Shown piece by piece: positions 6,047 to 27,641 of a DNA stretch of 37,623 nucleotides. Each line of letters begins with the position of its first letter. Within the stretch, counting starts at the first letter, position 1. Made by a program: the position numbers and the translations under genes. Source of the DNA: a virus; the IMG/VR virus record IMGVR_UViG_3300047160_000628, positions 1-37,623 of that record; one strand, given 5' to 3'. The notes under the pieces were generated by a model, which was not told the DNA's origin, made no database searches, and was given only the letters and a program-made list of their open reading frames with translations.

Positions 6047-6093
6047 CTCGTATCTCCTGTCTGTCGCTGTCCGGGTGCCGATCTGGCCCCGCT

Positions 6094-6133: not shown

Positions 6134-6141
6134 CGTGGTGA

Positions 6142-7566: not shown

Positions 7567-7601
7567 CGTGGGTTCTCCTTGCTGGGGGTGCCGTGGGTCC
7601 A

Positions 7602-7814: not shown

Positions 7815-7902
7815 CTGTCATCTCCTATCGCTGCCGGGCGTCGCTGCCCGCTGAGCGAACACTAGCGCCTCGTCAGCGGGCGTCAAGCACATTCTTAGTA
7901 CG
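7815..7902 (-). promoter_or_regulatory. Early-region regulatory cassette 4
   Basis: In minus sense: TTGACG (7886..7881), 16 nt, TAGTGT (7864..7859). The inverted repeat is cccgctga (7847..7854) / tcagcggg (7873..7880), with an inner GCG/CGC stem and the loop holding TAGTGTT. This is followed by CAGCGAC-gcccgg-CAGCGATAGGAGATGAC. Confidence 0.5.
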
Positions 7903-8340: not shown

Positions 8341-8543
8341 CTCCGCTCCTGTCTAATGCCCTGTCGCTGGGGCGGGACCGATCCCGATACCTCCACGGGA
8401 TCGTAGCCCAGCGTCCTGAGCGATGCCCGGCAGGATGGGCACAGGACCCGGACCCCCACCATGAATAGGCGGCAGGCGGTCATGCCTGCGCGCTGATCGT
8501 GGCAGTGGGCGCACCGGGTACTGGATGCCGTGGTCGCTGTCAT
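8337..8543 (-). CDS. Small zinc-ribbon-like protein (68 aa)
   Basis: Track ORF. The Cys pattern is RCAHCH, 20 residues, then LCPSCR. It is the first gene after the late-operon terminator region. Confidence 0.5.
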   Translation of the reverse strand: MTATTASSTRCAHCHDQRAGMTACRLFMVGVRVLCPSCRASLRTLGYDPVEVSGSVPPQRQGIRQERR

Positions 8544-8572
8544 GGCCCGGACAGGCTACAGCCCCTGATAGC

Positions 8573-8598
8573 GCCCCTGCAAGTGGTACGTCAGGGGC
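8573..8598 (-). terminator. Hairpin downstream of the tail fibre gene; candidate end of the late transcript
   Basis: gcccctg (8573..8579) pairs with caggggc (8592..8598). It lies in the 72-nt gap between the last structural gene and the first early gene. Confidence 0.35.
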
Positions 8599-8615
8599 AG
8601 GACCCTGAGCCCGAC

Positions 8616-9560: not shown

Positions 9561-9570
9561 TGCCGGTTCC

Positions 9571-10305
9571 TCACACCTGCGCCACGATGTCCACCACGAT
9601 GTTATTCGTCCCGGACGCAGGCGCGGACCCGAACGTCAGGACATCGAGGAAGGTACCGGATAGCGCCCAGTCCTGTGACCTGCTACCCGCCACGTAGACG
9701 CTGATGGACATGGCATCGAGGGGCGCCACCGGCAGATAGAAGACGGTGGTGGACCCGTCGCCATTGAAGCAGTTGTTGTCCACGTGGACGTGGGCAGTGG
9801 CTGCCGCTGCCGGGGGATCGCCCGGCACCCACGCTGTGCCATTCCACGTCAGGACCGCGCCTGTCACGGCACCTGTCAGCGTGCCCAGCGCCGTCCCGTT
9901 GATCTTCGCCACCACGGGACTGGTCCCAGACCCTGACAGGTCCCCGCCCCACGTGACATGAAGTCCAGTGACCGTAGGGCTGGTCCCAGACCCCGACAGA
10001 TCGCCCGCCCACGTGACGTGCAGCCCTGTGACCGTGGGATTGGGGTAGGTCCCGCCCAGATCGCCACCGGCAGGACCCGTGGGTGACGTGGACGGTGGCG
10101 CCACGAAGTCCCACGTGCCCGTGCCCGCGTTGTACTGGATCAGGTTCCCATTGGCCTCGGTGCCGGGCGCGGTCAGGGGCTTGCCGTCAATGCCCACGAC
10201 CTGTGGCGACGGCAGCCCGCCCCCCAGATCGCCACCGACAGGACCTGATGATCCCCCAGCCGGACCGGGCGCTGTGACATTCGGGGCGAAGCGCGTGGTC
10301 TTCAT
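9571..10305 (-). CDS. Glycine-rich minor tail protein with repeated GGDL(G/S)G...P.V motifs
   Basis: Track ORF 9571..10326. ATG at 10305 (MKTTRFAPNV) gives an ATGA overlap with the upstream stop. The GGDLGGTYPNPTV-type motif occurs four times, as in actinophage minor tail proteins. Confidence 0.65.
   Translation of the reverse strand: MKTTRFAPNVTAPGPAGGSSGPVGGDLGGGLPSPQVVGIDGKPLTAPGTEANGNLIQYNAGTGTWDFVAPPSTSPTGPAGGDLGGTYPNPTVTGLHVTWAGDLSGSGTSPTVTGLHVTWGGDLSGSGTSPVVAKINGTALGTLTGAVTGAVLTWNGTAWVPGDPPAAAATAHVHVDNNCFNGDGSTTVFYLPVAPLDAMSISVYVAGSRSQDWALSGTFLDVLTFGSAPASGTNNIVVDIVAQV
9921..10040. repeat. Imperfect 60-bp tandem duplication inside the minor tail gene
   Basis: Units 9921..9980 and 9981..10040 are roughly three-quarters identical by eye. 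They encode VTGLHVTWAGDLSGSGTSPT and VTGLHVTWGGDLSGSGTSPV. Confidence 0.8.
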
Positions 10306-14747: not shown

Positions 14748-14800
14748 AGGTGGACCCCTAGGATGGGTTGTCTGCGACGATCAGGCGGCAGGCTGCATCA

Positions 14801-15465
14801 TCAGCCACCCCGGCCACGTGCTGCCGCCTGTGCCAGTCCTGCGGCCAGACTGTCCTCGAGGGCACGGGCACGCAGCAGGTCCTCACGGGACTGCGCCCCG
14901 ATGCGCTCCTCGGCAGCCACCTGCATCGATAACTTGGCCTCGCGCCACGTCAGGACACCGGGGCCACGGATGACATCCCAGCCGTACCGTTCCGCGAGGA
15001 TCGCCTCGACCGCCTCGGGCGCCGTGGCCCAGACCGCAGGCTCGCTGATGTCGATACGGCCATCGGCCCAGCCTGCAATAATGTCGATGGCCGGGCCAGT
15101 AAAGGGCTGAGCAGATCGTCGCTGTACTGCTCGTCACAGGCATCCGCCAGCGCCAGTCCGCCCTTCTGCCACGGCACCAGCCGCTCGAGATTGTCGCGGG
15201 TGATCGGCACCGGGCGGATGCCCCCCGTCCCATCCGACTCGAGGAAGGACCACGACCGGATCACGGTGGGCAGGTATGACCGGATCAGGGCGGCTTGGAT
15301 CAGTGCGGGCTCGCTGTCCACGAGTCGGATCGCTGCCAGCGCGCCCGCTGCCATCGGCAGGTCCAGCGCCGGGATGATGCGCACCTCCTCGACGGCATGG
15401 GGCGATCCGGGGCAGGGGCAGTCCCCCGCCCGGATCGGGACCGTGACCAGATCGTCTGCCATCAC
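14801..15465 (-). CDS. Tail assembly chaperone -1 frameshift fusion (G-T analogue)
   Basis: The -1 frame stays open for about 100 codons from the heptamer to TGA at 14803..14801. It is GC3-rich (…AIDIIAGWADGRIDISEPAVWATAPEAVEAILAERYGWDVIRGPGVLTWREAKLSMQVAAEERIGAQSREDLLRARALEDSLAAGLAQAAARGRGG). It has no usable start codon until 41 codons before its stop. Confidence 0.6.
14950..15465 (-). CDS. Tail assembly chaperone (zero-frame product, G analogue)
   Basis: Track ORF between the major tail and tape measure genes, with an ATGA overlap to the major tail stop. It contains the slippery heptamer at 15106..15100. The zero-frame tail after that site is Arg/Ser-rich. Confidence 0.65.
   Translation of the reverse strand: MMADDLVTVPIRAGDCPCPGSPHAVEEVRIIPALDLPMAAGALAAIRLVDSEPALIQAALIRSYLPTVIRSWSFLESDGTGGIRPVPITRDNLERLVPWQKGGLALADACDEQYSDDLLSPLLARPSTLLQAGPMAVSTSASLRSGPRRPRRSRRSSRNGTAGMSSVAPVS
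15100..15106 (-). promoter_or_regulatory. Programmed -1 ribosomal frameshift slippery heptamer C CCT TTA
   Basis: Minus-sense CCCTTTA sits in the X_XXY_YYZ phase of the chaperone frame (codons AGC CCT TTA), at the canonical position between the major tail and tape measure genes. Confidence 0.6.
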
Positions 15466-16475
15466 AGGGCCGACAGCGCCGTTGCCACCAGCGTCCGGTA
15501 CGGGTACGTCAGGGTGGCGTCAAACAGCCCCTGAATGACGATCTGATTCGTCGTGTTGGCGGTCTGGTAGATGCCCGGCGTATTCGTGAACCAGTAGCCG
15601 GGGAAGCGGATCTCGTGGCTGTACGGGACAGACGAGGCCGGGATCAGCGTCGGACTGACGGTCTTGAGCGACACGAAGCGGCGGACCGGATCATTGGCCA
15701 GCCAGTTGACGATCTCGGCCAGCGCGGCAGTGGACTTGGCGAAGTTGAAGGTCGCTTGGAAGCCGCGCAGACCGCGCCCGTAGCCTGCCGCCTGAAAGCG
15801 CGTGTTACTGCCATTGGCGAAGGACTTCACGTCGATGTTATTCGAGATCTCGACCGTCGCCCCGTGCAGGGTATTGGTCAGCTTCGTATTGCCCAGCGTG
15901 CCTGCCGTGTCATTGATGTACACGGACGTGTCGGCCATGTACGCCCAGACCGGCTGACTGTCCACGTCCAGCGCAGCCATCGCGTGCGGGTACGCCTCTG
16001 CCGATCCGCGCAGGTCCGCTGACACCTGAATCGGACCCAGATCTTCCGGGTACGTCAGGGTCAGCTTGTCCACGATCACGTCTTCCAGTTGGTACTGGTC
16101 CGTGGTCTCGTCGCCCCACTCGGCTGTGAAGATCTCGAACGCATCCTGCGACTTGGACGCGGGCTGGTAGTCCCAGACGTGCGCCGTGGGCGTGACCCCT
16201 GCCTTCGCGGTCATGGCCCACAGGTACGGCGCATCGTCATACGCCAGTGGCCCGGTCAGCGGACCCATCACGTCGATGCGGGTCCGGTAGGGCGCGATGG
16301 CCTGATCCAGCGTCCCGGTGTCCGTGTCCGGCCACGTCCAGTGCGGATCGATATTCGGTGCGAAGCGTAGCCCGAAGCGTCGGGTCGCTGTGACCGGCAC
16401 ATGGAAGGTCGTCTGCAAGCCCATCTGGAAGGCACGCAGGCGGACATTGCCGGGCAGGGCTGCCACAGGTGACAT
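15462..16475 (-). CDS. Major tail (tube) protein
   Basis: A 337-aa track ORF directly upstream of the chaperone pair. There is no sheath gene nearby. Confidence 0.6.
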   Translation of the reverse strand: MSPVAALPGNVRLRAFQMGLQTTFHVPVTATRRFGLRFAPNIDPHWTWPDTDTGTLDQAIAPYRTRIDVMGPLTGPLAYDDAPYLWAMTAKAGVTPTAHVWDYQPASKSQDAFEIFTAEWGDETTDQYQLEDVIVDKLTLTYPEDLGPIQVSADLRGSAEAYPHAMAALDVDSQPVWAYMADTSVYINDTAGTLGNTKLTNTLHGATVEISNNIDVKSFANGSNTRFQAAGYGRGLRGFQATFNFAKSTAALAEIVNWLANDPVRRFVSLKTVSPTLIPASSVPYSHEIRFPGYWFTNTPGIYQTANTTNQIVIQGLFDATLTYPYRTLVATALSAL

Positions 16476-16933
16476 CAGGATCGTCCCTCCAGTACCACGT
16501 ACGTGTAGTCCGCGACCAGTTGCATGAAGCCTTGCAGCGGACCCTGCGAGATACTCCCCTCACGCAGCCCGATCTCCTGAAAGATGCCGGGCGGCAGGAT
16601 GCGCGCGTTGGCCGTGAAGACTTCGCGCATGTAGTCAGCGAATGAGTTCGCCCGTGTGTTTGCCTCCTCGTTATCGGGCGCCACGTCCACGTACACGATC
16701 TGCCCGGTGAACAGCGTCTGGCGCAGCCCGCTGTCATGGACGATCCGCTCGGTGATCGCAGACAGGTACACCAGCGGGACCTCGCCCGTCAGCGCCTGTG
16801 GGATCTCCGACCACTGCTTCCTGATCACGCCCGGCACGGCTGCCATGAAGCCCGACAGGATCGCAGCGAGGAAGTCGTTCACGTCCTGCCGTGTCGGGTC
16901 CCACGTCGTGGGGATGACCGGCATGTACGTCAT
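16475..16933 (-). CDS. Tail terminator / head-tail joining protein (positional call)
   Basis: A 152-aa track ORF between the gp10-like gene and the major tail gene, overlapping the genes on both sides. Confidence 0.4.
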   Translation of the reverse strand: MTYMPVIPTTWDPTRQDVNDFLAAILSGFMAAVPGVIRKQWSEIPQALTGEVPLVYLSAITERIVHDSGLRQTLFTGQIVYVDVAPDNEEANTRANSFADYMREVFTANARILPPGIFQEIGLREGSISQGPLQGFMQLVADYTYVVLEGRS

Positions 16934-17454
16934 TCGATGATCCCCTCGGCAGCCGCACCGGGGTTGCCGCTATTCCAGACCATCACGATGGCGTCCGCCA
17001 GACCGGCCTTCTGGACCGCGACGCCAAACCCCCGCTCGACGAAGGCATTGACTGGCGTTGCGCCCCGGATCACGCGCTTGGCGAAGACCACGCCCCCCAG
17101 TCCGCCACGGGCTGCGCCACTGCGCACGGACCCGGACAGGCGCCGTCCGGCAGCACTGGCAGCCCAGCGCAGTGCCTTCTTCGTCACGGGCACGATGATC
17201 TGGCCACCCTTCGTGCCGAACTCAACAAAGCCTGCGTAGACGGCACTAATGATGATCTGCGCGTACTCGCCTGTGATCTCGCCCGGATGCACGCTGCGCG
17301 ACAGGTTGTCGGTCTTGCGTGGCGCCTCGATCTTGATCTCCCGGACCGCTGACATCTGGAGCCTGCGCAGGACGGCAGGACCGACCTCGGCTGACCCGAC
17401 AGCCTGTATCCGGCGCTGGAGGGCTGTGTACCCGATCAGGGCGTCATCAGCCAC
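16930..17454 (-). CDS. HK97 gp10-like head-tail joining (neck) protein
   Basis: The motif SAVYAGFVEFGTKGG matches the YAxxVEFGT signature of the HK97 gp10 family. The start is GTG at 17454. Confidence 0.6.
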   Translation of the reverse strand: MADDALIGYTALQRRIQAVGSAEVGPAVLRRLQMSAVREIKIEAPRKTDNLSRSVHPGEITGEYAQIIISAVYAGFVEFGTKGGQIIVPVTKKALRWAASAAGRRLSGSVRSGAARGGLGGVVFAKRVIRGATPVNAFVERGFGVAVQKAGLADAIVMVWNSGNPGAAAEGIIE

Positions 17455-17602
17455 GGATCAGCACCTGCATGGCCGCGATCATCGCAGCAGGTCCACAGGA
17501 CCGGCACAGCCACAGGACGCGCCCGGACAGCGGCAGCGTGACCGGATGGCCACGATGCCGCTGGCAGCGCACACAGGCGATCCTAGACGGGCTGTTGCTC
17601 AT
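17447..17602 (-). CDS. Small zinc-ribbon-like protein (51 aa) inside the head-tail joining block
   Basis: Not in the track. ATG at 17602 shares one base with the upstream TGA (TGATG). The hand translation is MSNSPSRIACVRCQRHRGHPVTLPLSGRVLWLCRSCGPAAMIAAMQVLIRG, ending in TGA at 17447. Its end overlaps the next start by 8 nt. Confidence 0.5.
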   Translation of the reverse strand: MSNSPSRIACVRCQRHRGHPVTLPLSGRVLWLCRSCGPAAMIAAMQVLIRG

Positions 17603-18312
17603 CAGACCGATGCCACCTGTAGGCCGATCTTGAAGTCAGCGATGAAGTCCCGCGCCTCGGGCGGCAGTTGGCTGTACTGCTGGACCGCCCCGCTGGGGGT
17701 GATCGCCACGTCAGCGAGGATCGATCCCGGACGCTCGGTGTAGAAGGCGGACAGTACCTTGACCGCCTGAAGGAACGTGTCGGGCTCCTCGCCCGGCGCC
17801 CAGCCCGCAGACCCCTTGATGTACAGGTCGTTGGGCATCGAGGTCCATGCGTACCCGCCCCCTCGATTGCCGGGGAAGAAGGGACTGTCGAGCAACTTGT
17901 CATACCACAGCGGGTCCGACAGCCACCATGGCGCGTCACTGTCGGCACGCCATGCCCGGAACTGGAGTGCCACGTAGGTCCCGGACATCAGATCGTCTGG
18001 GATGGCCCAGCAGGACGTATTGGGATCGGTGCTGCTGAAGCCCACGGACATGGTGGCGCCACCCCACGTCACGGTATCGAAGGTGCGGAAGCCGGGGATC
18101 GGCACCTGCGCCCGGATCATCGTCGTGGTCCGGTACACGAAGTCCGACACGTCCACCAACTTACGATGCGTCTCGAACTCGAGCTTGGACTGCGCAGCGC
18201 GGATGTTGGAGCCAATGGTCTCGTCGCTGTACCGGCTACTGCTGGGCGGGGTATTCAGTGACATGTAGTCACGCACCTGCGTGGGCGTCACCACCATGGC
18301 CATCTGGCTCAC
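17602..18312 (-). CDS. Head-tail connector (gp6-like adaptor) protein
   Basis: The N-terminus VTPTQVRDYMSLN...SDETIGSNIRAAQSKLEFETHRKL resembles the phage gp6-like connector pattern. It is the first structural gene after the glycosylation cassette, joined by a GTGA overlap. Confidence 0.5.
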   Translation of the reverse strand: MSQMAMVVTPTQVRDYMSLNTPPSSSRYSDETIGSNIRAAQSKLEFETHRKLVDVSDFVYRTTTMIRAQVPIPGFRTFDTVTWGGATMSVGFSSTDPNTSCWAIPDDLMSGTYVALQFRAWRADSDAPWWLSDPLWYDKLLDSPFFPGNRGGGYAWTSMPNDLYIKGSAGWAPGEEPDTFLQAVKVLSAFYTERPGSILADVAITPSGAVQQYSQLPPEARDFIADFKIGLQVASV

Positions 18313-19574
18313 GCTGCCGCCTCCGCCTCAGCCGGGTCCACGATGGCCTGCATCTGCTGGGCAGCCACCGACCACCGGAAGTTCCGCTGGACGTGCAGCA
18401 GCCCGGCCTTGCCCCGCACGCCCAGTTCGTGCTTGTTCTTGATGATCCAGTGCAGCGTGGTGGCGTACTGCTTCTGGTCTGGCGACGCCCACCAGTGGCT
18501 GTACACATTCTCAACGAGGTAGCCCACCGGCACGGTCCAGCCACCGGGACCGATCACCTCGGGCACACTGCTGAAGTCCAGCCCCACGACCGGGGTCCCG
18601 CACGCCATGGCCTCGGCAATGGTCAGCCCGAAGCCCTCGGCTGATGTGCTGACGTACAGGTCCGCTGCCGCGTACATGATGCGCAGAATGCTACGCGGGA
18701 CCCCACCGAACTCATCATGCAGCCCCGTGCTATTCATGCGGTCTGCGATGGGCTGCGGATACTTGCTGCGCTCGTCCAGCAGGTCCCCGCCCTGATCCAC
18801 GGACAGACAGTGCCAGATCAGGCGGGCGCGCGGGAAGACCTCGAGTACCGGGGCGACGGCACGCAGCAAGGCCGGGTATTGCTTGCGGGGCATGTGCCGG
18901 TCCGCGCGGAACATGATGAAGTCATCCTGTGGCCAGCCGAGGAACTTGCGCGCCTCGGCGCGACTGCGGATCACCACGTCCCGCGTGATCGTGCCATCTG
19001 GCCGGGCGCGCCCCACCAGCCGCACAGGCGAGATCTCGTTGATCGGCTTGAAGTCGGTGGTGTTCACCCCGTGATAGACCACGGGCGGGCGCCGTCCCGT
19101 CAACCGCTCGATCTCGCCCGCCCCGAAGTCGCACATGGCGACGGGCTGCACCCTGTCAAAGACTGCCTTCCACGATGGCGGCAGCCCGATCCCCTCGACC
19201 GGGACGTAGAAGTACGTAGGGTGACCCTCGGGCAGGATGGGCAGGATCGGGGACATCTTCAGCGACGCCACGTCCCCGACGATCAGGGTGGCGTCAGGCT
19301 TCCAGCCGTCCTCGAACAGCCCGCCCTCGAACATGGACTTCAGCCTGTCGCGGGTCTGGGGCAGCGACGCCTCGTCCAGCGCCAGCCACCCGGTCTTCTC
19401 GCCCAGCAGCGCGGTCCGGTCACGGAAGGGCGCGGGCAGACCGTCACGGGTGGGCGCCTCGTTCATCGACAGGAAGCGGATGTCCATGCCCAGCGCCAGC
19501 ATCTCGGCGCCCAGATCGATGGTCACGGTCCCGAAGCCGGTCCCACCCATGTCCCCGCAGAACAGCAGCCTCAT
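18309..19574 (-). CDS. GT-B fold glycosyltransferase (GT4 / Glycos_transf_1-like)
   Basis: The motif STSAEGFGLTIAEAMACGTPVVGLDFSSVPEVI is the E-x7-E region typical of GT4 enzymes. ATGA overlap with the upstream gene. Confidence 0.75.
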   Translation of the reverse strand: MRLLFCGDMGGTGFGTVTIDLGAEMLALGMDIRFLSMNEAPTRDGLPAPFRDRTALLGEKTGWLALDEASLPQTRDRLKSMFEGGLFEDGWKPDATLIVGDVASLKMSPILPILPEGHPTYFYVPVEGIGLPPSWKAVFDRVQPVAMCDFGAGEIERLTGRRPPVVYHGVNTTDFKPINEISPVRLVGRARPDGTITRDVVIRSRAEARKFLGWPQDDFIMFRADRHMPRKQYPALLRAVAPVLEVFPRARLIWHCLSVDQGGDLLDERSKYPQPIADRMNSTGLHDEFGGVPRSILRIMYAAADLYVSTSAEGFGLTIAEAMACGTPVVGLDFSSVPEVIGPGGWTVPVGYLVENVYSHWWASPDQKQYATTLHWIIKNKHELGVRGKAGLLHVQRNFRWSVAAQQMQAIVDPAEAEAAA

Positions 19575-20212
19575 GCCAGCGCCGCCATGCGCGCGTCCCA
19601 GCGCGCCCGATCCCGCTCGATCATCGGCTGGAGATCATCGGCTGCCTTCATGTACGACTGCGCCAGCAGATGCCAGACCGGCAGCCCATTGACCCGGATC
19701 ACCGACAGCCCCGCCACCCGCACATCATGCTCGAACTGATCGTCTCCGTACCACCACTGGTACCCCTCGTCGAAGCGGATGGGCAGATCGGACCGGATGG
19801 CGAAGGCAAAGCCGGTCATCCCGTCGTGACCCTGCGCGCCCCATGTCCCGCGCACCTCGGTGTAGGTGCCATCGGTCTGGTAGTCCATGTCGAAGGGCAC
19901 GGACGTATCCGGGCATGACACGCCCACGCGGGGATCAGTCAGCGGAGCGATCAGGGCGTGGATCGCGCCCGGTGGCAGCACCACGTCATCATTCAGCACG
20001 ACCGTGTACCGGGCGCGGTAGACATCACGGGCGATCTGGCAGCCCGTATTCCAGAGGCGGTAGATGGACCAGTCAGGGCCACGGTCGAAGGCATCCGGCA
20101 CCAGCACGACCTGCACCCCGTCCAGACGCAGGGTGGACACCAGCCCTAGCAGCGGGTCGGACTGGTAGCGCGTCGGGATCACGGCTGCGATGGTCACGGC
20201 TGGCCCACCCAT
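19571..20212 (-). CDS. GT-A fold glycosyltransferase (GT2-like)
   Basis: The N-terminus is IAAVIPTRY, and VVLNDDVV is DxD-like. An alternative GTG start at 20197 would give a GTGA overlap with the upstream stop. Confidence 0.6.
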   Translation of the reverse strand: MGGPAVTIAAVIPTRYQSDPLLGLVSTLRLDGVQVVLVPDAFDRGPDWSIYRLWNTGCQIARDVYRARYTVVLNDDVVLPPGAIHALIAPLTDPRVGVSCPDTSVPFDMDYQTDGTYTEVRGTWGAQGHDGMTGFAFAIRSDLPIRFDEGYQWWYGDDQFEHDVRVAGLSVIRVNGLPVWHLLAQSYMKAADDLQPMIERDRARWDARMAALA

Positions 20213-20814
20213 GCGACTGGCATTCCGAACTCACGGGCAGCCGCCTCGGCCTTGAAGGCGCCCAGTGCGTACCCATGGTGCGGATTGTCACCCGTCAGGG
20301 TACCGTCATCCAGCACCGTCCGCGTGTCCCCGGACAGGTACGAGTCCATGCCGACCAGAACGACCTCCGTGCAGCCGATGGCCTGCGCCAGCCGGACAGC
20401 CACCTCGGCTGACATGCTGTACCACGGGATGCCGAAGTCCTCGACCACGATCCGCACCGGATCATACGCCTCGAGGCAGTAGTTCGCCTCCTCGCGGGAC
20501 ACGACCGCGATCTCGTCCGGGGCGGGCGTGATCAGCGCGCATTCGTGACCGGGACCGGGCGGGTGCCACGTCGGGTCATCCCACCTGTGCCCCTGACAGC
20601 CGTCCTTCTGCATGCTGACGATCCGGTACGCAGCCACCAGCGGGCGCACGTGGATGACCGCCCGATTCAGCGTGATGACAGGACCCCAGCCCCAGCCCAT
20701 GAAGGTGTCCTTCGTGACCGCCAGCAGGCTGGGGCCACGGCCCACCACGTAGGCTGGCCTGTCCCGGAAGCGGGACTTGAGTTCGCGCAGGGGATCGGCC
20801 ACCACAGCGATCAC
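20194..20814 (-). CDS. MptE-like / DUF115 (Maf-type glycosyltransferase-like) protein
   Basis: The motifs AYVVGRGPSLL (compare GxGPSL) and VVLVGMDSY (compare the GxD motif) fit the DUF115/Maf family. The likely start is GTG at 20814 (GTGA overlap); the track ORF extends to 20877. Confidence 0.45.
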   Translation of the reverse strand: MIAVVADPLRELKSRFRDRPAYVVGRGPSLLAVTKDTFMGWGWGPVITLNRAVIHVRPLVAAYRIVSMQKDGCQGHRWDDPTWHPPGPGHECALITPAPDEIAVVSREEANYCLEAYDPVRIVVEDFGIPWYSMSAEVAVRLAQAIGCTEVVLVGMDSYLSGDTRTVLDDGTLTGDNPHHGYALGAFKAEAAAREFGMPVAWVGQP

Positions 20815-21539
20815 CTGACCGCTTCCTCGAAGCCAGACCACTTCCACTGCGTGATCTGGCCCGTATCGAACTCCCACTCGGGATTGGCGTGCAGCAGGTC
20901 CAACACATCCTGTGTGGTCACGTCCGGCCAGCGCTTGGACAGGCGCGCCATGATCCGCCTGTGCAGGGCCAGATCAGCCGCATGGTCGATGGTCAGCCGA
21001 TGGTGGGACTCGTCCGGGACCGTGGACAGCACCCTGACCGGGTACTCCTTCGGGCGCCTGTCCCAGAACGCCCCGGTGTGCTCGCGCTCCTCGGTCGTGG
21101 TGGCGTGACGATTCGCCATGTCCAGCGCCCAGCGGGTCACGGCCCATGCGTGCAGTCCGTACGGCTGGCCCGTGGTCCGGGCATAGACCGCCCCGTCGTG
21201 GACGGCATCGAGCACCTGCCGGATCGTATCCGGGTCCATCAGCGGCTGGTCTGCCCCGAGAAAGGCGATGGCCTGCACGTCGTGATAGAAAGCCGCCAGC
21301 CACACCCGGTGCACCACGTCATTGACCGGGCCACGGACCACACTGGCGCCCGCCGATGACGCCACGTGGCCCACGGCAGTATCAGCCGGGTCCCACGTCG
21401 TGGCGACGATCACAGGGGCAACTTTCTTCAGGCGGGACACCTGCCATGCCAGCAGCGGCTGCCCCACCACCTCCGCCAGCGTCTTGCCGGGCAGTCGGTG
21501 CGACCCCTGCCGCGCCTGAATGATGATGGCCTCCTTCAT
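20811..21539 (-). CDS. SpsF/NeuA-family cytidylyltransferase (CTP_transf_3-like nucleotide-sugar synthetase)
   Basis: The N-terminus MKEAIIIQARQGSHRLPGKTL is followed by TEEREHTGAFW and HRLTIDHAADLALHRRI, which resemble the EHVT and RLTVD..D motifs of SpsF-like enzymes. ATG at 21539 gives an ATGA overlap. Confidence 0.7.
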   Translation of the reverse strand: MKEAIIIQARQGSHRLPGKTLAEVVGQPLLAWQVSRLKKVAPVIVATTWDPADTAVGHVASSAGASVVRGPVNDVVHRVWLAAFYHDVQAIAFLGADQPLMDPDTIRQVLDAVHDGAVYARTTGQPYGLHAWAVTRWALDMANRHATTTEEREHTGAFWDRRPKEYPVRVLSTVPDESHHRLTIDHAADLALHRRIMARLSKRWPDVTTQDVLDLLHANPEWEFDTGQITQWKWSGFEEAVR

Positions 21540-22171
21540 CCGACCCCAGCCTCGATCCGGCTGTACAGGCGCGTGGACTCCTCGGCAATGGCCTCGTACT
21601 TGCTGTGGATCAGATACGCAGACCGGGGCGCCTTCGGCAGCCATGGGGTCCCGCGCGTCAGCGCCTCGGGCACCCCGTCCAGCATCACCTGCTCGTGGAC
21701 CGGCTTGTACCAGACGCCAGCCTTGCGCCTGAATAGGCGGCAGTGCCAGTGCTCCTCGTATTCGTCACCCTGATGTCCGTCGAAGTAGTTCTGCGTGAAG
21801 TACAGGTACCCACGCGGGGCCGGGTAGCCCGTCCCCTGCCAGCGCACGTCCTGCTGCACCGGGTCCTGCGTCACCAGCCGGATGTGCTCCATCATCGCCA
21901 CGGACGGCACTTCGTCCGGGTCCAGATGCAGCACCCAGTCCCCGGTGGCCACCGGGATGGCGGCATTCCGGGCTGTGGCGAAGTCATCCACCCACGTGAA
22001 GGGGACCAGCACCGTGTCCCGCCACTGCTCCATGATGCTGACCGCCTCGGGCAGCGTCCGGTCATCGACCACAATCACGGTCTGCTGCACGAACGGGCGG
22101 ATGTACTCCACCAGCGCTGTCAGCCGGTCGATGGGTGGGTCCTTGACGAGGAACGCTGCCGAGACGGTCAT
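21536..22171 (-). CDS. GT-A fold glycosyltransferase (GT2-like)
   Basis: Motifs are VSAAFLVKDPP, TVIVVDDRT, WVDDFATARNAA and GDWVLHLDPDE. It starts 18 nt after the capsid gene stop, preceded by CAGCGACAGGTGA. Confidence 0.7.
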   Translation of the reverse strand: MTVSAAFLVKDPPIDRLTALVEYIRPFVQQTVIVVDDRTLPEAVSIMEQWRDTVLVPFTWVDDFATARNAAIPVATGDWVLHLDPDEVPSVAMMEHIRLVTQDPVQQDVRWQGTGYPAPRGYLYFTQNYFDGHQGDEYEEHWHCRLFRRKAGVWYKPVHEQVMLDGVPEALTRGTPWLPKAPRSAYLIHSKYEAIAEESTRLYSRIEAGVG

Positions 22172-22189
22172 GGGATCACCTGTCGCTGA

Positions 22190-23689
22190 CTAGGTGGTGA
22201 GGGTGGTCATGTACTGGAAGGCACCGACAGCCACGGCGGTCTTCGGGTTGAACCCGATTTCCTCCTCGGCACGGAAGCCAATCAGGTTGTAGTCCCAGCG
22301 GGTCCCAGCCTGATCGGACGTGTCGATGCGGAATTCCATGCCCCGGTACAACTTCGCCTGCTTCCAGTCGCCAGCGATGGCGAGCGGAACGATGGACGCG
22401 TTGGTCCCGAGGTTGGCGTCGTACCGGACCGGGACGCCCCAGAAGGACAGCCCGCCGTACGGGGTGATGTCGCCCGGTCCGCCTGTCGGAGACAGGAAGA
22501 AGCCCGCCGTGTCCGTGCCCTGCGCAGCCACCGTCCAGAAGGTGGTGGCGTCGATGACCACGGCTGTGGCGCGCTGAGACCGTCCGGCCAGCGCCCCGAA
22601 CAACTTCGCCAGCCCAGCGGCAGCCGATCCCGCGAGGGTATTCGGTCCAGCCGTGGGGGTGAAGGTGGACTTGTACAGCGGGTCTGCCGCCTGAAGGGCG
22701 GTCAGGATGCCCGTGGGCGTGTCGGTCCCGGCAACGCCAGTACCGCCCGCGCCCACCGCCATGTAGTAGTTCTCGCCCAGAACGGCTGCCCGAGTGAGTT
22801 CGTCCATGACATCCGTCTCGGCAGCGCCCGCGCTGAAGCGCGCGTACTGCTTGGAGATGTCCATGACACGGGCGATGGTGCACAGGTACGCAGCGTACGT
22901 GCCGTACGCCTCGTCCAGATTCTCCTTCAGCGTGCCCCAGTTGGACACGACCATGCGGGGCGGAGCCCCGGTGCGGTAGGGCTGATCCACGCCCCGGACC
23001 GCCACGCCATTGATGACCGTGACCAGCGTCTGGTAGACGGCCTCCTGCGTGTGCGGCTTGACCACCGTGTCCACGAGGTTATTCGGCAGGACGTAGCCGC
23101 CTGCCGACCCCGGTGTACCGAGGGTGGCCTTGCCTCCGCCGTCCACGAACTGGTAGCCCGTGGCGAGGTCGGCCTTGCCTGCGTAGGCACTGAACTGCGC
23201 CATCGCAGCCTTGCCGCGCAGGATCGCCTCGAGGTCCGGCGCCGTGGTCATCCCGTCGATGCCGTGGACATCGAGCAGGGCGGTCAGCCACTCGCCAGCC
23301 TTGTACTTCGTGAACGCCGCGTCCATCGACGGAAAGGGGCTGATGATCGCGTCCGCCTTGCGACGGGACCCGCCACCAGACCTGTCCAGCGGTCCACCCT
23401 GCCCGATCTCGCCTGCGCGGGACGGGCTGTACTGGTGGACTGCCGCCTTGAAGCGCTCGAACTCCTCGGCCTGCTTGTCCAGCCGCTTCTGGAGATCGGC
23501 CTTGCGCTTCTTCTTGCCCTGACGCTGGTCTGCGTCAGTCAGCCGGGCTGCTGTGTCACGCAGCCCATCAGCGGCAGCGGCCTTGCGGCCACCGTCGCTG
23601 CGCGATCCATCCTCGAACCGCGCGATCAGGTCCCGCATGTCCTGCGTCGCCTGACCGATCTCGCGGGCGAGGTCCTCGTTCTGGCCCAT
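22190..23689 (-). CDS. Major capsid protein, HK97 fold, with an N-terminal coiled scaffold-like (delta) domain
   Basis: A 499-aa ORF after the protease gene, with GAGGAG upstream. The charged helical N-terminus runs for about 110 aa. It is followed by typical capsid-family sequence (GGYVLPNNLVDTVVKP..., ...WDYNLIGFRAEEEIGFN). Confidence 0.75.
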   Translation of the reverse strand: MGQNEDLAREIGQATQDMRDLIARFEDGSRSDGGRKAAAADGLRDTAARLTDADQRQGKKKRKADLQKRLDKQAEEFERFKAAVHQYSPSRAGEIGQGGPLDRSGGGSRRKADAIISPFPSMDAAFTKYKAGEWLTALLDVHGIDGMTTAPDLEAILRGKAAMAQFSAYAGKADLATGYQFVDGGGKATLGTPGSAGGYVLPNNLVDTVVKPHTQEAVYQTLVTVINGVAVRGVDQPYRTGAPPRMVVSNWGTLKENLDEAYGTYAAYLCTIARVMDISKQYARFSAGAAETDVMDELTRAAVLGENYYMAVGAGGTGVAGTDTPTGILTALQAADPLYKSTFTPTAGPNTLAGSAAAGLAKLFGALAGRSQRATAVVIDATTFWTVAAQGTDTAGFFLSPTGGPGDITPYGGLSFWGVPVRYDANLGTNASIVPLAIAGDWKQAKLYRGMEFRIDTSDQAGTRWDYNLIGFRAEEEIGFNPKTAVAVGAFQYMTTLTT

Positions 23690-23703
23690 GCCAGTGAACT
23701 CCT

Positions 23704-24960
23704 CTAGCGCGTAGTGGGGAGCACCTCGCGTGCCCGCGCGATGACGAGGCGCGCTTCACGCAGTGCTGACAGCAGGACATCGCGCCCGGTCCCGTAACCG
23801 GACTGGTCGGAAGCAGTCAGCCGCCTACCAGTCAAGCCGCTATCCGGGTCGATGTCATCGAGTCCGACCAGTGCCGCCTTGACGGCACCCAGCCCTACCT
23901 CGCGAAGTGGGATGTCAGCGGCCAGTATCGCCTTCAGCGACGGCATGACCGCGAGGGTATTCTGGGGTGACGTGCTGATGGTCTGCCTGATCCACGGCCA
24001 CGTCAGGATCTCCCCCGTGGCCTTGTTCACGCGCCAGCCCGGCGCAGACTCGGACGACCCGTACAGGTGCGCGCCCCTGCGCTCCAGATCGGCCACCAGA
24101 CGCAGCCTGCGCTCGCCCGCATTGGCCCACAGGTCCACCCACAGACCATCCATCTCAGGCGACTCGTCCGCTACGGCCTTCCCGAGAATGGCGTCGCCCA
24201 TGTAGCCCGTGGGGTCCATCCGGTGGTGGAAGTCCACCAGCCGGTCCCGCGTGGCCAGCAGCGCCTTGTGCCCTGCGTACAGGTCGGTGCGCTCGCTGAA
24301 CCACTCGCCATCGATGTCCACCCCGCGCGGGGCACCGGCCTGTGGGATCGTCCCGCCGTAGGGGATCGCCAGCATCCTGCGCGGGATCTCGCCCTTCAGC
24401 CACCGATCCAACTGCCCGGTGGTCATCGGCTCGGCCTTGAGTTCTGCGAACTCGCGGGCCTTCATCGAGTAGGACGGGGCCATGGCATCGTCACCCGCCA
24501 GATCGTCCGCAGTCCCGATCTCCTGCTGCTCGAGTTGCAGCCACTGCGCCAGACTGGCGATGCTGGACTTGATGGCGGCAGCCTGCGTGGACTCGTCCGC
24601 CTCACAGGACAGCAGGTCGTACAACTCCGCCATGATCCGGGCGCCACAGGCTGCATTGCTGGCAGCCTCGCTGTACGCCTTCTGCTTGGTCCCGGCATCC
24701 TCGGCGGGCTGCCCGATCCCGAACTTGCGGGCGGCAGCCTCGACCTTCGGGCGCGCCTTTGCCTCGAAGGGTGACGTGGTCAGACGCGCCAGCGCATTGC
24801 GCACGTGGGCTGCGTCATGGATCGGAAAGTGCCGCTTCGACCGGGGCACGGTCTTGCCCTGATCGTCCTTCGTCCCGCCCGGCTCGATGTAGGCGAAGTC
24901 CGAGTCTGGCAGATCGTTGATGTCCGCGCTGGACATCGCTGCCTTGCCGCTAGCCATCAC
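23704..24960 (-). CDS. Prohead maturation protease / scaffold fusion
   Basis: It lies between the portal and capsid genes. The N-terminal motif DLPDSDFAYIEPGG...RHFPIHDAAHVRNALARL is common in phage scaffold/protease proteins. The C-terminal half has HK97-protease-like His and Ser regions (VDFHH..., LYGSSES). Confidence 0.55.
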   Translation of the reverse strand: MMASGKAAMSSADINDLPDSDFAYIEPGGTKDDQGKTVPRSKRHFPIHDAAHVRNALARLTTSPFEAKARPKVEAAARKFGIGQPAEDAGTKQKAYSEAASNAACGARIMAELYDLLSCEADESTQAAAIKSSIASLAQWLQLEQQEIGTADDLAGDDAMAPSYSMKAREFAELKAEPMTTGQLDRWLKGEIPRRMLAIPYGGTIPQAGAPRGVDIDGEWFSERTDLYAGHKALLATRDRLVDFHHRMDPTGYMGDAILGKAVADESPEMDGLWVDLWANAGERRLRLVADLERRGAHLYGSSESAPGWRVNKATGEILTWPWIRQTISTSPQNTLAVMPSLKAILAADIPLREVGLGAVKAALVGLDDIDPDSGLTGRRLTASDQSGYGTGRDVLLSALREARLVIARAREVLPTTR

Positions 24961-27641
24961 TCGCCCTCGCCTTCCGTACTGCCCTCGTCCATGGTCTCGA
25001 TGACCGGCACCCAGTCCAGCGTGCCATTCGGGTGGTCCTCGATATCAGCCGCTTCCTCGACGCTGTAGGTCTGGCCATCGCGCTCAGCGCACACATCGTC
25101 ATCGTCCCCGTCGATGGCCTCGACCTGCGTCACGCCCATGTCCCCGTACGTACTGACAGCAGCGGCGTTGTACGCAAACATCAACTCTGTGGTGGCGATC
25201 CGCTCGGCGCGGTACTCGTCCCAGCCGAACCACGACTGGATCATGTCGCCCAGCGTGGCCGGTGACGCGCCCTCCTCGAGCCCGTCATCGATGATTTCCT
25301 TCAGCCCGTCGCGGGTGGTCTCGTTGATCTTCGTGACCCGGCCAGCACCCTTGGCCAGCACGTACGTGACGGCAGCCGGTTGGGGCGGTCCGCCCACTGG
25401 CACAAATGCCGCCTTGCCTGTCGGCATCACGGTCCTGATGTGATCATCCACCGTGACCGCGACATTCGTGAGGGTGGGTGACAGGGCGGCTGTCATCGCC
25501 TGATCGTGCGCCTTGGCATTCCACCAGATCGTGGTGTCACCCGGCGTCCGCCTGATGGCGTCGTACTTCGTCAGAACCCGCGACACCACGTCCCGCTTCA
25601 TTTGCTCCAGCGCGCCTGCCACGGACGCGCGCAGCACTGGCGTCTGCGCCTTCTGCACCCGCTCGCGCAGCCCCTGCATCCGGGACCGGACCGTGGCTGC
25701 CTTGCCACGCGATCCGGCATCCTGTGGGGCGGGCAGGGTGTCATCAATCGCGATCAGGTCCCGCGTCCACTGATCGTCACCCTTCCCGATATAGGCCGGG
25801 ACGTGGGTCAGCCCTGCGTGCTCGGCGCCCAGCAGCCGGTGCCACCCATCGATGGGTTCCGTGGGCTTGGCATCCGCCCCGCTGCCGCCGATCCGCTTCG
25901 TCTTGACCAGTACCACGGGATCGATGGGCGCGCCCACGCCCAGCGCAGCCGCGACAGCCTGCACAGTCTTCGGATTGCGGGCGATGGGGCGCCGGGCGTA
26001 GTCGATCTTGTCCAGCGGGTACGCGGGATCGTACTTCCAGTCCCCCTTGGAGATCTGGGACAGGCTGTCGGCAGACCACTGCTTGCGCAGGGCGCCCAGA
26101 ACCGCCTGTGTCACGTCGCCCTTGGCCTTGGTGGCCTGCACGCCAGCCGGTGGCTGAACTGCCGCTGTTGCGGCTGTTGCGGGCGCAGGCGCGGGCGTGG
26201 CCGGGGCTGCCGGTCGTGGACCTGCGCCCGGCGCAGGCGAGCCCCCACCTGACGGGATCGGTGGGGATGCGCCGGGCATCAGGTCCTCAATGGGAATCAG
26301 GGTATTCGGCATCAGGATGCGCTTGCCGACCGTCTCGTCATCCAGCGGGTCCTTGCCGATCAGGTCCCGGCGCTCGTCATTCGTGAGCGCGATCCACTGC
26401 GCCTTGGCCAGTTTGTCGAAGCGTGCGCTGTCATCATTCAGCGCCGGGATGTCCAGCACCAACTGCGGCGCCCAGCCCAGCAGCGCCTCGAAGCGGTCGA
26501 GGATGCGTCCCTGCACGGACTCCTGAATCTCGGCCAGTCGCGGGATGATCGCATTCTCCCACATCGCCTGCCGGTCGTACTTGCGCACGTCCCCGGAGTT
26601 CAGCCCGGTGGGCGTATAGCCGCCCAACTGCGACAGGGGCACGCCCCAGACCGCCAGCAGGTCGGCCTCGTTCTGCTTGAGGAAGTCCACCAGCGCCATC
26701 TCGACCGTCGTAGCGGTCGTGCGGGTGAACTCGATGGGTCCCCGGACCACCTGCACCCGCTTGCCGGACTCGGGCTGCTCCGTGATGTTGCGCCAGTCCC
26801 GGACCATCTGCTGGTACACGCCATCGTCCTCGATGGCGCCCGTCTTCGGGGACAGGATGCCGGACAGGCGCCCACCCCCGGACAGCAGGCTGGCGAAGTA
26901 CTTGTCAATGGTCCCCGACAACTGGACCTTCATGATTGCGGACTCGATCAGCCCGGCTGGCATGTAGCCCACGTCTGGCGGCTGGAACTGGAACTGCACC
27001 ACCTCGTTGGGGTCCAGCTCGCGCCCTTCGGCCCTGCCACCGGGGCCGGGACGCGGGTCCAGTATCCACTTCGTCAGCACACCCTGATCATTCGTGTCCG
27101 GGACGATCCGGTCAGGACGGCAGTAGATGACGCTACGCGGAATGCCCAGCGGGTCCATACCATCCAGAATCCAGAAGCCGTATCCGGCCAGCCCCATGTG
27201 CCGGGACGTGATCTCCCAGAGTTGGCGCCGGGTCCGCAGCGGGCTGGGCACGTCGAGGTACTTGAATGGCTGGTCCACCAGCGTGTACGCCTCGATGGCG
27301 CGCGGATCGCCCGTGTACTCGTCATCGATGGTCTCGCCATCGGGGTCTTCCAGATGCCACGATGCGGACTGGTCCCCCATCAGCGGCGTTCCGGCCACCG
27401 CCCCGCTGATCGCGCGCTCGGCCATGCGCACATACGGCACGTCCACGCCCAGCGCCAGACTGCGGGCAGCCTTCTTCTGCGTGTCGTTCGGCAGGATCAG
27501 TGGCAGCAGCCACTCGGTCATCAGGACGCCAGCGCCCGGACCGATGGGGCCAGCCTTCACTGCCGCTGCCCCGGCAGTTTCGACACCGGGATGCCGGGCC
27601 ACCGGGGCAGCAGCAGGACGGGTCGGGACCATGACACTCAC
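24957..27641 (-). CDS. Portal protein fused to a ParB-like nuclease/DNA-binding domain and a MuF/SPP1 gp7-like head morphogenesis domain
   Basis: An 894-aa ORF. The N-terminal ~470 aa are portal-like by position and size. A Pro/Ala linker follows, then the ParB-N-like segment PLDKIDYARRP...PIDPVVLV...EPIDGWHRLLGAEHAGLTHVPAYIG. The C-terminal MuF-like segment is RAERIATTELMFAYNAA...DDVCAERDGQTYSVEEA...HPNGTLDWVP. Confidence 0.65.
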   Translation of the reverse strand: MSVMVPTRPAAAPVARHPGVETAGAAAVKAGPIGPGAGVLMTEWLLPLILPNDTQKKAARSLALGVDVPYVRMAERAISGAVAGTPLMGDQSASWHLEDPDGETIDDEYTGDPRAIEAYTLVDQPFKYLDVPSPLRTRRQLWEITSRHMGLAGYGFWILDGMDPLGIPRSVIYCRPDRIVPDTNDQGVLTKWILDPRPGPGGRAEGRELDPNEVVQFQFQPPDVGYMPAGLIESAIMKVQLSGTIDKYFASLLSGGGRLSGILSPKTGAIEDDGVYQQMVRDWRNITEQPESGKRVQVVRGPIEFTRTTATTVEMALVDFLKQNEADLLAVWGVPLSQLGGYTPTGLNSGDVRKYDRQAMWENAIIPRLAEIQESVQGRILDRFEALLGWAPQLVLDIPALNDDSARFDKLAKAQWIALTNDERRDLIGKDPLDDETVGKRILMPNTLIPIEDLMPGASPPIPSGGGSPAPGAGPRPAAPATPAPAPATAATAAVQPPAGVQATKAKGDVTQAVLGALRKQWSADSLSQISKGDWKYDPAYPLDKIDYARRPIARNPKTVQAVAAALGVGAPIDPVVLVKTKRIGGSGADAKPTEPIDGWHRLLGAEHAGLTHVPAYIGKGDDQWTRDLIAIDDTLPAPQDAGSRGKAATVRSRMQGLRERVQKAQTPVLRASVAGALEQMKRDVVSRVLTKYDAIRRTPGDTTIWWNAKAHDQAMTAALSPTLTNVAVTVDDHIRTVMPTGKAAFVPVGGPPQPAAVTYVLAKGAGRVTKINETTRDGLKEIIDDGLEEGASPATLGDMIQSWFGWDEYRAERIATTELMFAYNAAAVSTYGDMGVTQVEAIDGDDDDVCAERDGQTYSVEEAADIEDHPNGTLDWVPVIETMDEGSTEGEGE

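Follow-up and report, generated by a model that had tools for sequence, protein, structure and literature searches.

The 37,623-nucleotide (nt) virus record IMGVR_UViG_3300047160_000628, referred to as the window at its full length, carries five sugar-handling genes on the minus strand at positions 18309–22171, between an HK97-type capsid gene and the neck genes. We propose, with a probability of about 0.6, that this cassette serves cytoplasmic O-glycosylation of the phage's own virion proteins, including the addition of an ulosonic acid that is supplied as a sugar by the host and activated with cytidine monophosphate (CMP). The major capsid protein is the most likely target. Within this proposal the ulosonic-acid branch has somewhat less than an even chance of being correct. 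The enzymology and the operon wiring are supported by the data below, and the case is strengthened by lineage-wide synteny. Coordinates are collected in Table 1.

Organization of the cassette

An original prediction, made from the letters of the sequence, had placed five open reading frames (ORFs) at this site and assigned them to the late structural operon. All five lie on the minus strand where it had put them, and every motif that it quoted is present. From the capsid side the genes encode a first family-2-like glycosyltransferase (GT2a), a cytidylyltransferase, a small DUF115-like protein, a second family-2-like glycosyltransferase (GT2b) and a glycosyltransferase of family 4 (GT4). The capsid stop codon is separated from the start of GT2a by an 18-nt gap containing an AGGTGA ribosome-binding site. 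All further junctions can be read as overlaps of stop and start codons, as had been claimed: ATGA between GT2a and the cytidylyltransferase (21536–21539), GTGA between the cytidylyltransferase and the DUF115-like gene (20811–20814, with the Shine-Dalgarno-like sequence GAGGAAG upstream), ATGA between GT2b and GT4 (19571–19574) and GTGA between GT4 and the following gene at 17602–18312 (18309–18312). For the DUF115-like gene the JGI gene call uses an alternative start, GTG 20847, yielding 217 aa. The junction between the DUF115-like gene and GT2b is a GTGA overlap (20194–20197) provided that GT2b starts at GTG 20197; translation from ATG 20212 would give 213 aa and a 19-nt overlap. GTG 20197 is the better start, because the resulting MTIAAVIPTR reproduces the consensus N-terminus MIAAVIPTR of the family.

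No promoter-like or terminator-like signal was found on the coding strand across positions 16500–25000. The cassette is translationally coupled to the genes for capsid and neck and forms part of the late structural operon, and we infer that it is also co-transcribed with them. Each of the five genes has homologs in conserved order in other contigs, which identifies them as real genes rather than chance ORFs of GC-rich DNA. The GC content is uniform across the region (0.65–0.68), and a recent horizontal acquisition showing in the base composition was rejected for that reason. None of the five proteins contains a membrane segment (no hydrophobic 19-mer above 1.6). In agreement with the original prediction, family scans of the ORFs, which covered all but some small ones, found no integrase, flippase, polymerase or lipid-carrier transferase; the ORFs covered by these scans are called the tested ORFs in the following.

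Family assignment of the five proteins

Profile and fold searches, named beforehand as the test that could refute the prediction, returned the five enzyme classes it had proposed. GT2a matches PF00535 with E = 4.3e-8 (33.7 bits, above the 23.3-bit cut-off). A profile built from ten lineage homologs retrieved only four PDB sequences at E ≤ 0.01, namely GmaR (2.5e-12), two SunS constructs (~1e-7; E = 1.4e-7 for the SunS profile match) and the SunS-like entry 7msk (1e-5). The motifs WxxDF(S/A)xARN and D-x-D-E/N are common to GT2a, GmaR and SunS, and LDPDE of GT2a aligns with IDADE and IDADN (DxD-type motif). This significant sequence homology points to a GT-A family-2 enzyme of the GmaR/SunS-like clade, which is directed at proteins or peptides.

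The family assignment of GT4, a predicted GT-B enzyme, is clear from its matches to PF00534 (1.8e-14, 54 bits, cut-off 26.4) and phrog_2170 (6e-19) and from an ExxxxxxxE motif (EGFGLTIAE, residues 313–321). GT2b matches PF00535 with 1.3e-3 and 19.2 bits, below the 23.3-bit cut-off, and sequence searches of the PDB with it gave nothing or only spurious matches. Its AlphaFold model (predicted local distance difference test, pLDDT, 93.1), in contrast, retrieved 301 PDB entries at E ≤ 1e-3 with Foldseek; among the 50 listed almost all are GT-A glycosyltransferases, with probability 1.0 to AvpGT, COLGALT1, TarP, b4GalT7 and GnT-I. For GT2b 68 homologs were collected, and the DxD-like motifs NDD and GDD are invariant. 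By these model-based matches GT2b is predicted to be a GT-A fold glycosyltransferase.

The cytidylyltransferase, originally predicted to belong to the SpsF/NeuA family, does match that family (CTP_transf_3, PF02348, 1.3e-17, 64.7 bits, cut-off 22.6), and the genomic neighbourhoods of its cellular homologs narrow the assignment. The best PDB matches are 6oew (1e-14) and then KdsB entries (~1e-7). The N-terminal motif IIQARQGSHRLPGK fits the KdsB/NeuA-type pattern ARxGSxRLPGK and the nucleotide-binding pattern ARxxSxRxPxK. None of the NCBIfam equivalog cut-offs was reached, and a back-translated pattern scan of viral contigs for the enzyme returned nothing. The cellular homologs P0007 and P0011 are found in clusters of the order dehydratase, DegT, cytidylyltransferase, PseG-H-like protein and NeuB, that is, alongside a NeuB-type synthase, whereas the window has no such gene among the tested ORFs. 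The closest named cellular homolog (Halobacillus, 38% identity) is flanked by a DegT aminotransferase and by a PseG/PseH-like fusion, after which comes NeuB; this is the canonical pseB-C-F-G/H-I order. Another cellular homolog (40% identity) belongs to a NeuB/DegT cluster with two small GT2 genes and a weakly matching MptE-like gene, whose product aligns with the DUF115-like protein of the window at 4e-8 across the GxGPSL and LxGxD motifs. Judged from these neighbourhoods, the enzyme is PseF/LegF/SpsF-like and a putative CMP-ulosonic-acid synthetase.

For the DUF115-like protein, which had been labeled DUF115/Maf-like, the label stands in the sense of a very distant, small and stand-alone DUF115 relative; the role as a transferase is a putative one. 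An exhaustive HMMER search gave 245 homologs, mostly stand-alone proteins of 180–210 aa; a word-index search found a single homolog in an uninformative context (P0122/L004). The near-invariant residues of the family include G36, G38, P39, S40, N61, Q80-K81-D82, S146, D168 and Y193. Weak matches to PF01973, and to nothing else, were obtained for 26 of 70 members. The protein corresponds to the core domain only (206–217 aa), and some viral relatives are fusions of ~700 aa. A Foldseek search with the AlphaFold model (pLDDT 90.4) gave the archaeal HPPK MptE (8sd5) as the top match, together with Maf (5mu5), SteA, thiamine pyrophosphokinase and the GT29 sialyltransferases ST8SiaIII and ST3Gal; template modelling (TM) scores of all matches were 0.42–0.48 at E ~1e-2. 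In a library of viral structures the best matches were 'MptE-like' proteins of uncultured Caudovirales, followed by viral sialyltransferases. The only PDB match of the family profile was the Campylobacter sialyltransferase Cst-II, which at E = 0.71 is not significant; the alignment falls on GNGPSL (GxGPSL), the serine of TSG and GID-x-Y (D-x-Y).

Membership of the DUF115 superfamily is credible for this protein. Its predicted fold alone cannot separate a CMP-sugar transferase from a pyrophosphokinase. We favor the transferase because of the published Maf/DUF115 chemistry, the pairing with a cytidylyltransferase and the neighbors of its relatives. Enzymes of the Maf/DUF115 type use CMP donors to attach nonulosonic acids or Kdo to Ser/Thr in O-linkage, and they are similar to Cst-II of family GT42; the DUF115 domain is central in the 632-residue Maf of M. 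magneticum (PDB 5mu5) (bioRxiv 10.1101/2020.06.03.131540). The protein is accordingly treated as a putative transferase for CMP or CDP donors, a soft biochemical assignment.

The same site in related phages

An alignment search with the capsid protein retrieved 37 viral contigs and two short contigs of a metagenome-assembled genome (MAG). In 34 of these contigs the first gene after the capsid gene is of a glycosylation type. The window and 20 relatives extend as far as the connector gene at the far end of the cassette, and in all 21 of these genomes the capsid-to-connector interval measures 2.2–6.7 kb and ends in the same GT4. The sole exception with downstream sequence is a distant temperate relative (L146, 33% capsid identity) that has an integrase.

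The gene content between these constant ends varies (orders are given from capsid to connector). About two dozen loci, the majority, carry an FkbM methyltransferase (PF05050, 3.5e-9), two GT-B-like genes and GT4. The minimal cassette consists of GT2a and GT4 (L133, L135, L136), an intermediate one of GT2a, GT2b and GT4 (L134), and larger ones of GT2a, additional genes and GT4 (L120, L121, L125, L129), with GT2b also present in L120 and L121. The order of the window, with cytidylyltransferase, DUF115-like gene and GT2b between GT2a and GT4, recurs in L012 and L015 and partially in L013 and L014. In the window-type, minimal and larger cassettes, GT2a is the gene immediately next to the capsid gene. 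GT4 is 53% identical in L001, whose cassette differs, and window-type cassette proteins are 40–65% identical between genomes, similar to the flanking structural proteins. This synteny marks the site as a conserved slot in which glycan-building modules are exchanged while GT4 stays constant. The cassette of the window is a minority variant of this slot.

Other variants contain sugar-modifying enzymes as well. In L120 the site between capsid and GT4 (12179–15918) encodes an FdtA/QdtA-type dTDP-sugar 3,4-ketoisomerase (PDB match 5e-26) and, as identified by eye, a GNAT protein, an acyl-carrier protein, a short-chain dehydrogenase and a KAS-III-like enzyme, a set that points to an N-acylated deoxy-amino sugar. 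In L129 the addition is an NDP-sugar epimerase/dehydratase (3e-78). In its size and in having an activating enzyme of its own, the cassette is therefore less of an exception than originally claimed, as sister cassettes carry nucleotide-sugar enzymes too.

The two short MAG contigs (L118 and L119, 2.9 and 4.4 kb) come from a Verrucomicrobiia bin and encode a capsid protein 45% identical to that of the window, followed by a majority-type GT-B-like gene. Their binning may be either a host hint or a binning artefact and is too unreliable to name a host.

The DUF115-like family in other viruses

Members of the DUF115-like family were located in 57 IMG/VR and 47 metagenome loci, 71 after removal of redundancy. 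These scans used an 11-sequence alignment, a 70-sequence alignment being too divergent. A pattern-limited scan of ~185,000 species genomes gave no close relatives. For at least 23 of the 71 loci the upstream neighbors include a capsid gene or the downstream neighbors an adaptor/connector gene, a count that rests on the annotation of ten neighbor clusters only. At least four capsid lineages that are unrelated to each other (HK97/PF05065, Gp13-like, P22-like and S77-protease-fused) have a member of the family beside the major capsid gene. In the S77-type lineage the order is a fusion of S77 protease and capsid, a TagF-like CDP-glycerol glycerophosphotransferase, Methyltransf_24, the DUF115-like gene and an SU10-type adaptor; it is most complete in L021 and L024 and varies in order or is partly missing in L027, L031, L086, L092 and L112. 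This content hints at a glycerol-phosphate-type modification of the capsid. Elsewhere a Gp13-like capsid gene is followed by a DUF115 fusion of ~700 aa, or a P22-like coat protein gene has DUF115 downstream. In eight loci (L053, L054, L059–L061, L065, L068, L070) two to four tandem DUF115-like paralogs lie downstream of a protein of ~1,000–1,700 aa that has no Pfam match.

The pair of cytidylyltransferase and DUF115-like protein occurs in two phage lineages, that of the window and an unrelated 38-kb phage contig (L003), where the capsid gene is followed by GT4, a TagD-like cytidylyltransferase, a weakly matching NTP-transferase, an SpsF-like cytidylyltransferase and the DUF115-like gene. In the literature we found no connection between DUF115/Maf-like genes and the structural modules of phages.

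Proposed function and alternatives

From the gene order and the family assignments we suggest the following route. Coupled in translation to the genes for capsid and neck and presumably transcribed together with them, the five soluble enzymes would be made when and where their presumed substrates are made. GT2a and the lineage-invariant GT4 would attach and extend a hexose or N-acetylhexosamine-type glycan on surface Ser/Thr residues, using UDP-sugars of the host, and GT2b might add a further residue. The cytidylyltransferase would convert a free ulosonic acid produced by the host (pseudaminic, legionaminic, Kdn or Kdo-type) with CTP to the CMP-sugar. The DUF115-like protein, acting as a minimal Maf/sialyltransferase-like enzyme, would then transfer this residue, either as an acidic cap or as a direct O-linked residue. 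The steps of the CMP branch are suggested by the gene pairing and the contexts of the homologs. In the lineage as a whole, the capsid-neck site would act as a swap-in hotspot, such that different relatives display different glycans. The diversity at the site parallels that of O-antigens and would fit a surface-exposed product under diversifying selection.

Several observations weigh against this proposal. Virion proteins are named as the target because of the position of the genes. A conserved Thr-rich acceptor at the capsid C-terminus, where the original prediction had with little confidence seen a possible site in YMTTLTT, was rejected: the sequence is present in the window (...FQYMTTLTT) but the tail is variable among cassette-bearing relatives (MTTLTT, TKDLTT or VTSIIP, the last in L015). 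Searches of the tested ORFs of the complete genome gave neither NeuB nor another gene for ulosonic-acid synthesis, so that the phage would have to activate a host-made sugar and the CMP branch depends on the host supplying it in free form. The DUF115-like protein scores 26.4 bits against PF01973, below the 34.6-bit cut-off, its weak fold matches extend to pyrophosphokinases in addition to sialyltransferases, and as a stand-alone protein of 206 aa it is without the flanking domains of true Maf proteins. In most viral loci of its family an SpsF-like cytidylyltransferase is not nearby. Homology to the mycobacteriophage enzymes was likewise rejected, as none of the five window proteins matches Che8 gp108-110 or Corndog gp35-38 at E ≤ 10 (phmmer); the Che8 and Corndog glycosyltransferase (GT) proteins match each other at 1e-56 to 1e-88. 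Finally, the fold neighbors of GT2b include TarP and RmlT, which glycosylate wall teichoic acid.

This last likeness, together with genes in sister cassettes for TagF-like CDP-glycerol glycerophosphotransferases and a TagD-like cytidylyltransferase (teichoic-acid-type chemistry), keeps alive the explanation that the enzymes modify a glycopolymer of the host envelope (wall teichoic or teichulosonic acid, arabinogalactan or similar) and not the virion. Ulosonic-acid wall polymers do exist in some high-GC Gram-positive bacteria, and such a modification could mask receptors against the loss of progeny on cell debris or block superinfection, like prophage TarP. We nevertheless regard it as unlikely. 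Dozens of relatives and several unrelated capsid lineages keep the cassette at a fixed place between capsid and neck and in translational coupling with these genes, which a function at the host surface would hardly explain; late expression and the lack of a detected integrase would leave little time to export a modified wall polymer, and the sequence relatives of GT2a act on proteins or peptides. The five proteins lack membrane segments and the tested ORFs a lipid-carrier transferase, flippase or integrase. Much more improbable still is glycosylation of the phage DNA (base hypermodification) as a defense against host restriction. According to a preprint, phage glycosyltransferases commonly modify DNA (bioRxiv 10.1101/2023.12.21.572611), and the genome encodes a DNA methylase together with PLP-dependent and NAD-binding enzymes at 999–3702. 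Yet the cassette is located in the head module, far from the replication genes, no hydroxymethylase or TET/JBP-type base-modifying enzyme was found among the tested ORFs, and GT2a is related to protein and peptide glycosyltransferases. To our knowledge, neither CMP-ulosonic-acid nor Maf-like chemistry is known for DNA.

A different possibility concerns the CMP branch. The GTs could glycosylate the virion while the DUF115-like protein is a (pyro)phosphotransferase resembling MptE or thiamine pyrophosphokinase, or a non-catalytic factor; the cytidylyltransferase would in that case activate another substrate than a nonulosonic acid, for example a polyol or sugar phosphate, for a phospho-linked substituent. 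MptE is the top Foldseek match, Maf and the sialyltransferases score no better than SteA and thiamine pyrophosphokinase, and Pfam names the PF01973 family after the kinase. The tested ORFs include no NeuB, and other phages place DUF115-like genes beside TagF-like enzymes and not beside CMP-sugar synthetases. On the other hand, the nearest cellular homologs of the cytidylyltransferase are found in NeuB-containing Pse/Leg-type clusters, its pairing with the DUF115-like protein is conserved in two phage lineages, and the sole, non-significant PDB profile match of the family is a sialyltransferase aligned on GxGPSL, S and D-x-Y. We judge this variant improbable as well and retain O-glycosylation of the virion, with the CMP branch as its less certain part.

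The capsid-adjacent loci of the DUF115-like family invite a broader idea, on which we would bet only tentatively and with the odds leaning against it: that tailed phages O-link sialic-acid-like (nonulosonic or ulosonic) sugars or other cytidine-nucleotide-activated groups to their capsids by a virus-specific, minimal Maf/sialyltransferase-like family. Should these proteins be a general capsid-modifying enzyme, their importance would extend well beyond one genome.

Virion glycosylation in phages has so far been shown only for a few mycobacteriophages, and there is reportedly little sign of it in the wider phage population. The present locus and its relatives suggest otherwise: a whole uncultured high-GC phage lineage keeps a swap-in glycan cassette at one fixed capsid-neck site, with enzymes unrelated to the known ones; the additions that distinguish the window variant are a putative CMP-sugar activating enzyme and a putative Maf-like transferase. 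If the broader idea on the DUF115-like family is right, environmental phages would commonly glycosylate their capsids, as a trait that diversifies and is not peculiar to mycobacteriophages. If confirmed, the cassette would represent a second, independent origin of phage particle glycosylation and might be the first example of a phage capsid that carries a sialic-acid-like sugar. Glycans of this kind could influence how stable the phages are, how they adsorb to debris, how grazers or immune systems recognize them and how they behave pharmacologically in phage therapy. The small soluble enzymes could serve protein glyco-engineering.

Further features of the genome

The window is an entire JGI metagenome contig. 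Its first and last 97 nt (1–97 and 37527–37623) are identical, which indicates a complete, circularly assembled phage genome of ~37.5 kb. Its GC content is 65–70% and all genes are carried by the minus strand. They include PrimPol, a PD-(D/E)XK nuclease, RusA, a GH25 lysozyme, the large terminase, a portal protein with a fused domain that weakly matches MuF, a 418-aa head protein, the capsid protein and the cassette; downstream of the latter follow the 236-aa gene, the Neck1/tail-completion gene, a candidate major tail protein and the tape-measure protein. Neither a megablast search of positions 17000–24000 nor a tblastn search with the capsid protein gave a match among GenBank phages.

Table 1. 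Positions of the cassette genes and of further features in the window.
Feature	Position	Strand	Size	Remark
GT2a	21536..22171	minus	211 aa	
SpsF/PseF/LegF-like cytidylyltransferase	20811..21539	minus	242 aa	
DUF115/MptE-like small protein	20194..20814	minus	206 aa	
GT2b	19571..20197	minus	208 aa	
GT4 (GT-B)	18309..19574	minus	421 aa	
Major capsid protein, HK97-type	22190..23689	minus	499 aa	Candidate glycan acceptor
Putative head-tail adaptor/connector	17602..18312	minus	236 aa	Identity from position
Cys-rich ORF	17447–17602	minus	51 aa	CxxC...CxxC, zinc-ribbon-like
Neck1/tail-completion protein	16930..17454	minus		phrog_5 2.2e-5; downstream boundary of head module
Portal protein	24957–27641	minus	894 aa	
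Possible decoration protein	8616–9560	minus		FTTTTTASD at ~residue 38
N6/N4 DNA methylase	999–2069	minus		
NAD-binding Rossmann-domain protein	2066–2830	minus		2-Hacid_dh_C-like
PLP-dependent enzyme	2821–3702	minus		PALP family

The capsid protein matches PF05065 (1.9e-14) and phrog_10 (2.8e-21) and is 44–58% identical to the capsid proteins of L001 and L015. The gene on the other side of the cassette had been named as a head-tail connector. No Pfam, PHROG or PDB match backs this label, which is taken from the position of the gene. The gene is conserved next to GT4, the protein being 53–71% identical and syntenic in L001, L012, L014 and L015, with the Neck1/tail-completion gene following in the relatives. 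The L012 homolog of the Neck1 protein shows a weak HK97-gp10-like match. Between the putative connector and Neck1 genes lies the small Cys-rich ORF, whose ATG overlaps the connector stop codon by one base (TGATG).

Residues 781–872 of the portal protein weakly match a Mu-F-like head-morphogenesis domain (PF04233, 18.9 bits, below the cut-off), and the portal homolog of L001 matches both halves of the protein. The protein bearing FTTTTTASD gave a sub-threshold match to Phage_cement_2 (residues 14–63) and, on this sequence evidence, may be a decoration protein rather than a fibre. The three adjacent genes at 999–3702 are unusual for a small phage and might have a role in nucleotide, DNA or amino-acid modification.

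Comparison with known systems

Temperate serotype conversion (GtrABC or O-antigen modification) relies on a membrane flippase and a bactoprenol-linked GT, with an integrase in the genome. The window differs from it, as the scanned ORFs contain no flippase, polymerase or integrase family and the five proteins no membrane segment. It also differs from phage DNA glycosylation by the position of the cassette in the head module instead of the nucleotide-metabolism module and by the lack of a base-hydroxymethylating or -oxidising family among the tested ORFs. Giant viruses (chloroviruses, Mimiviridae; a putative CMP-Kdo pathway in CroV and Fadolivirus) encode their own nucleotide-sugar enzymes and GTs for particle glycans and combine a CMP-ulosonic-acid synthetase with glycosyltransferases (PMC9614988), as the window would with its putative synthetase. 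They are viruses of eukaryotes with complete sugar pathways, whereas the 37.5-kb phage carries the putative activation step only. In the sps spore-crust system of B. subtilis, an SpsF-type cytidylyltransferase is needed for a nonulosonic acid on a proteinaceous surface layer: SpsF, the putative enzyme of the last step of the CMP-legionaminic-acid pathway, is required for transfer of legionaminic acid to the spore surface (PMC7439481). Unlike the window phage, this cellular system comes with the genes for the entire synthesis pathway.

GT2a is significantly similar to the catalytic domains of GmaR, SunS and ThuS and has motifs in common with them. SunS and ThuS, which are peptide S/O-glycosyltransferases, glycosylate a polypeptide directly from nucleotide sugars, without a lipid carrier. 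The GT domain of Listeria GmaR, which also works from a nucleotide sugar and needs no lipid carrier, attaches N-acetylglucosamine directly to flagellin (PMC9638930). For GT2a the protein acceptor is presumed. With only 211 aa, GT2a is without the TPR and anti-repressor domains of GmaR and without the C-terminal substrate-binding domain of SunS.

Among deposited phages, GT genes inside structural operons, even at this capsid-to-neck site, are already present in Corndog and in the Pontimonas phage phiPsal1 (MG835450). In phiPsal1, a cultured phage of an actinobacterium, the major capsid protein gene is followed by GT4, an S-adenosylmethionine-dependent methyltransferase, GT2 and a neck protein; its GT4 is homologous to that of the window (1e-12). 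The phiPsal1 cassette, annotated from its genes, comprises three genes only and has no cytidylyltransferase or DUF115 gene. The Tetrasphaera phage TJE1 (L006) encodes a nucleotidyl transferase, a guanylate kinase, a nucleotide-sugar epimerase, a methyltransferase and a GT4 homologous to that of the window (2e-18) at 4911–10254; these sugar genes are located upstream of the terminase and not beside the capsid gene.

In the mycobacteriophages Che8, Corndog and Myrna, phage-encoded GTs O-glycosylate the phage's own capsid and tail-tube subunits, as reported by Freeman et al. (2023, Cell Host Microbe 31:1216); systems of the Che8/Corndog type are marked by O-glycans on the C-termini of these subunits. 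The GT genes of Corndog, accompanied by an O-methyltransferase, belong to the structural operon and adjoin the protease and capsid genes, and the majority cassette of the present lineage similarly pairs a methyltransferase with three GT-type genes. The annotated Che8 and Corndog gene sets, unlike the window, include no cytidylyltransferase or DUF115 gene. The glycans of the mycobacteriophages are demonstrated, whereas the window system is known here from its genes and its capsid C-terminal tail is not conserved. As no sequence similarity was detected, the cassette lies outside the Che8/Corndog family. The original prediction was right to call it distinct from the characterised systems; no description of it was found in the literature.

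The flagellin glycosylation systems of Campylobacter, Aeromonas, Geobacillus and C. botulinum combine Maf with PseF/LegF, that is, a CMP-sugar synthetase with a DUF115-type protein, as in the window, and GxGPSL-type motifs are common to Maf-type proteins and the DUF115-like protein. The latter fails several defining features of true Maf proteins, and the phage differs further in having no nonulosonic-acid synthase among the tested ORFs and in its presumed target, the capsid instead of flagellin. Maf-type glycosylation is cytoplasmic and modifies Ser/Thr of a structural protein before this protein self-assembles. By analogy, the most economical reading is that the cassette works like the mycobacteriophage systems and Maf-type flagellin glycosylation.

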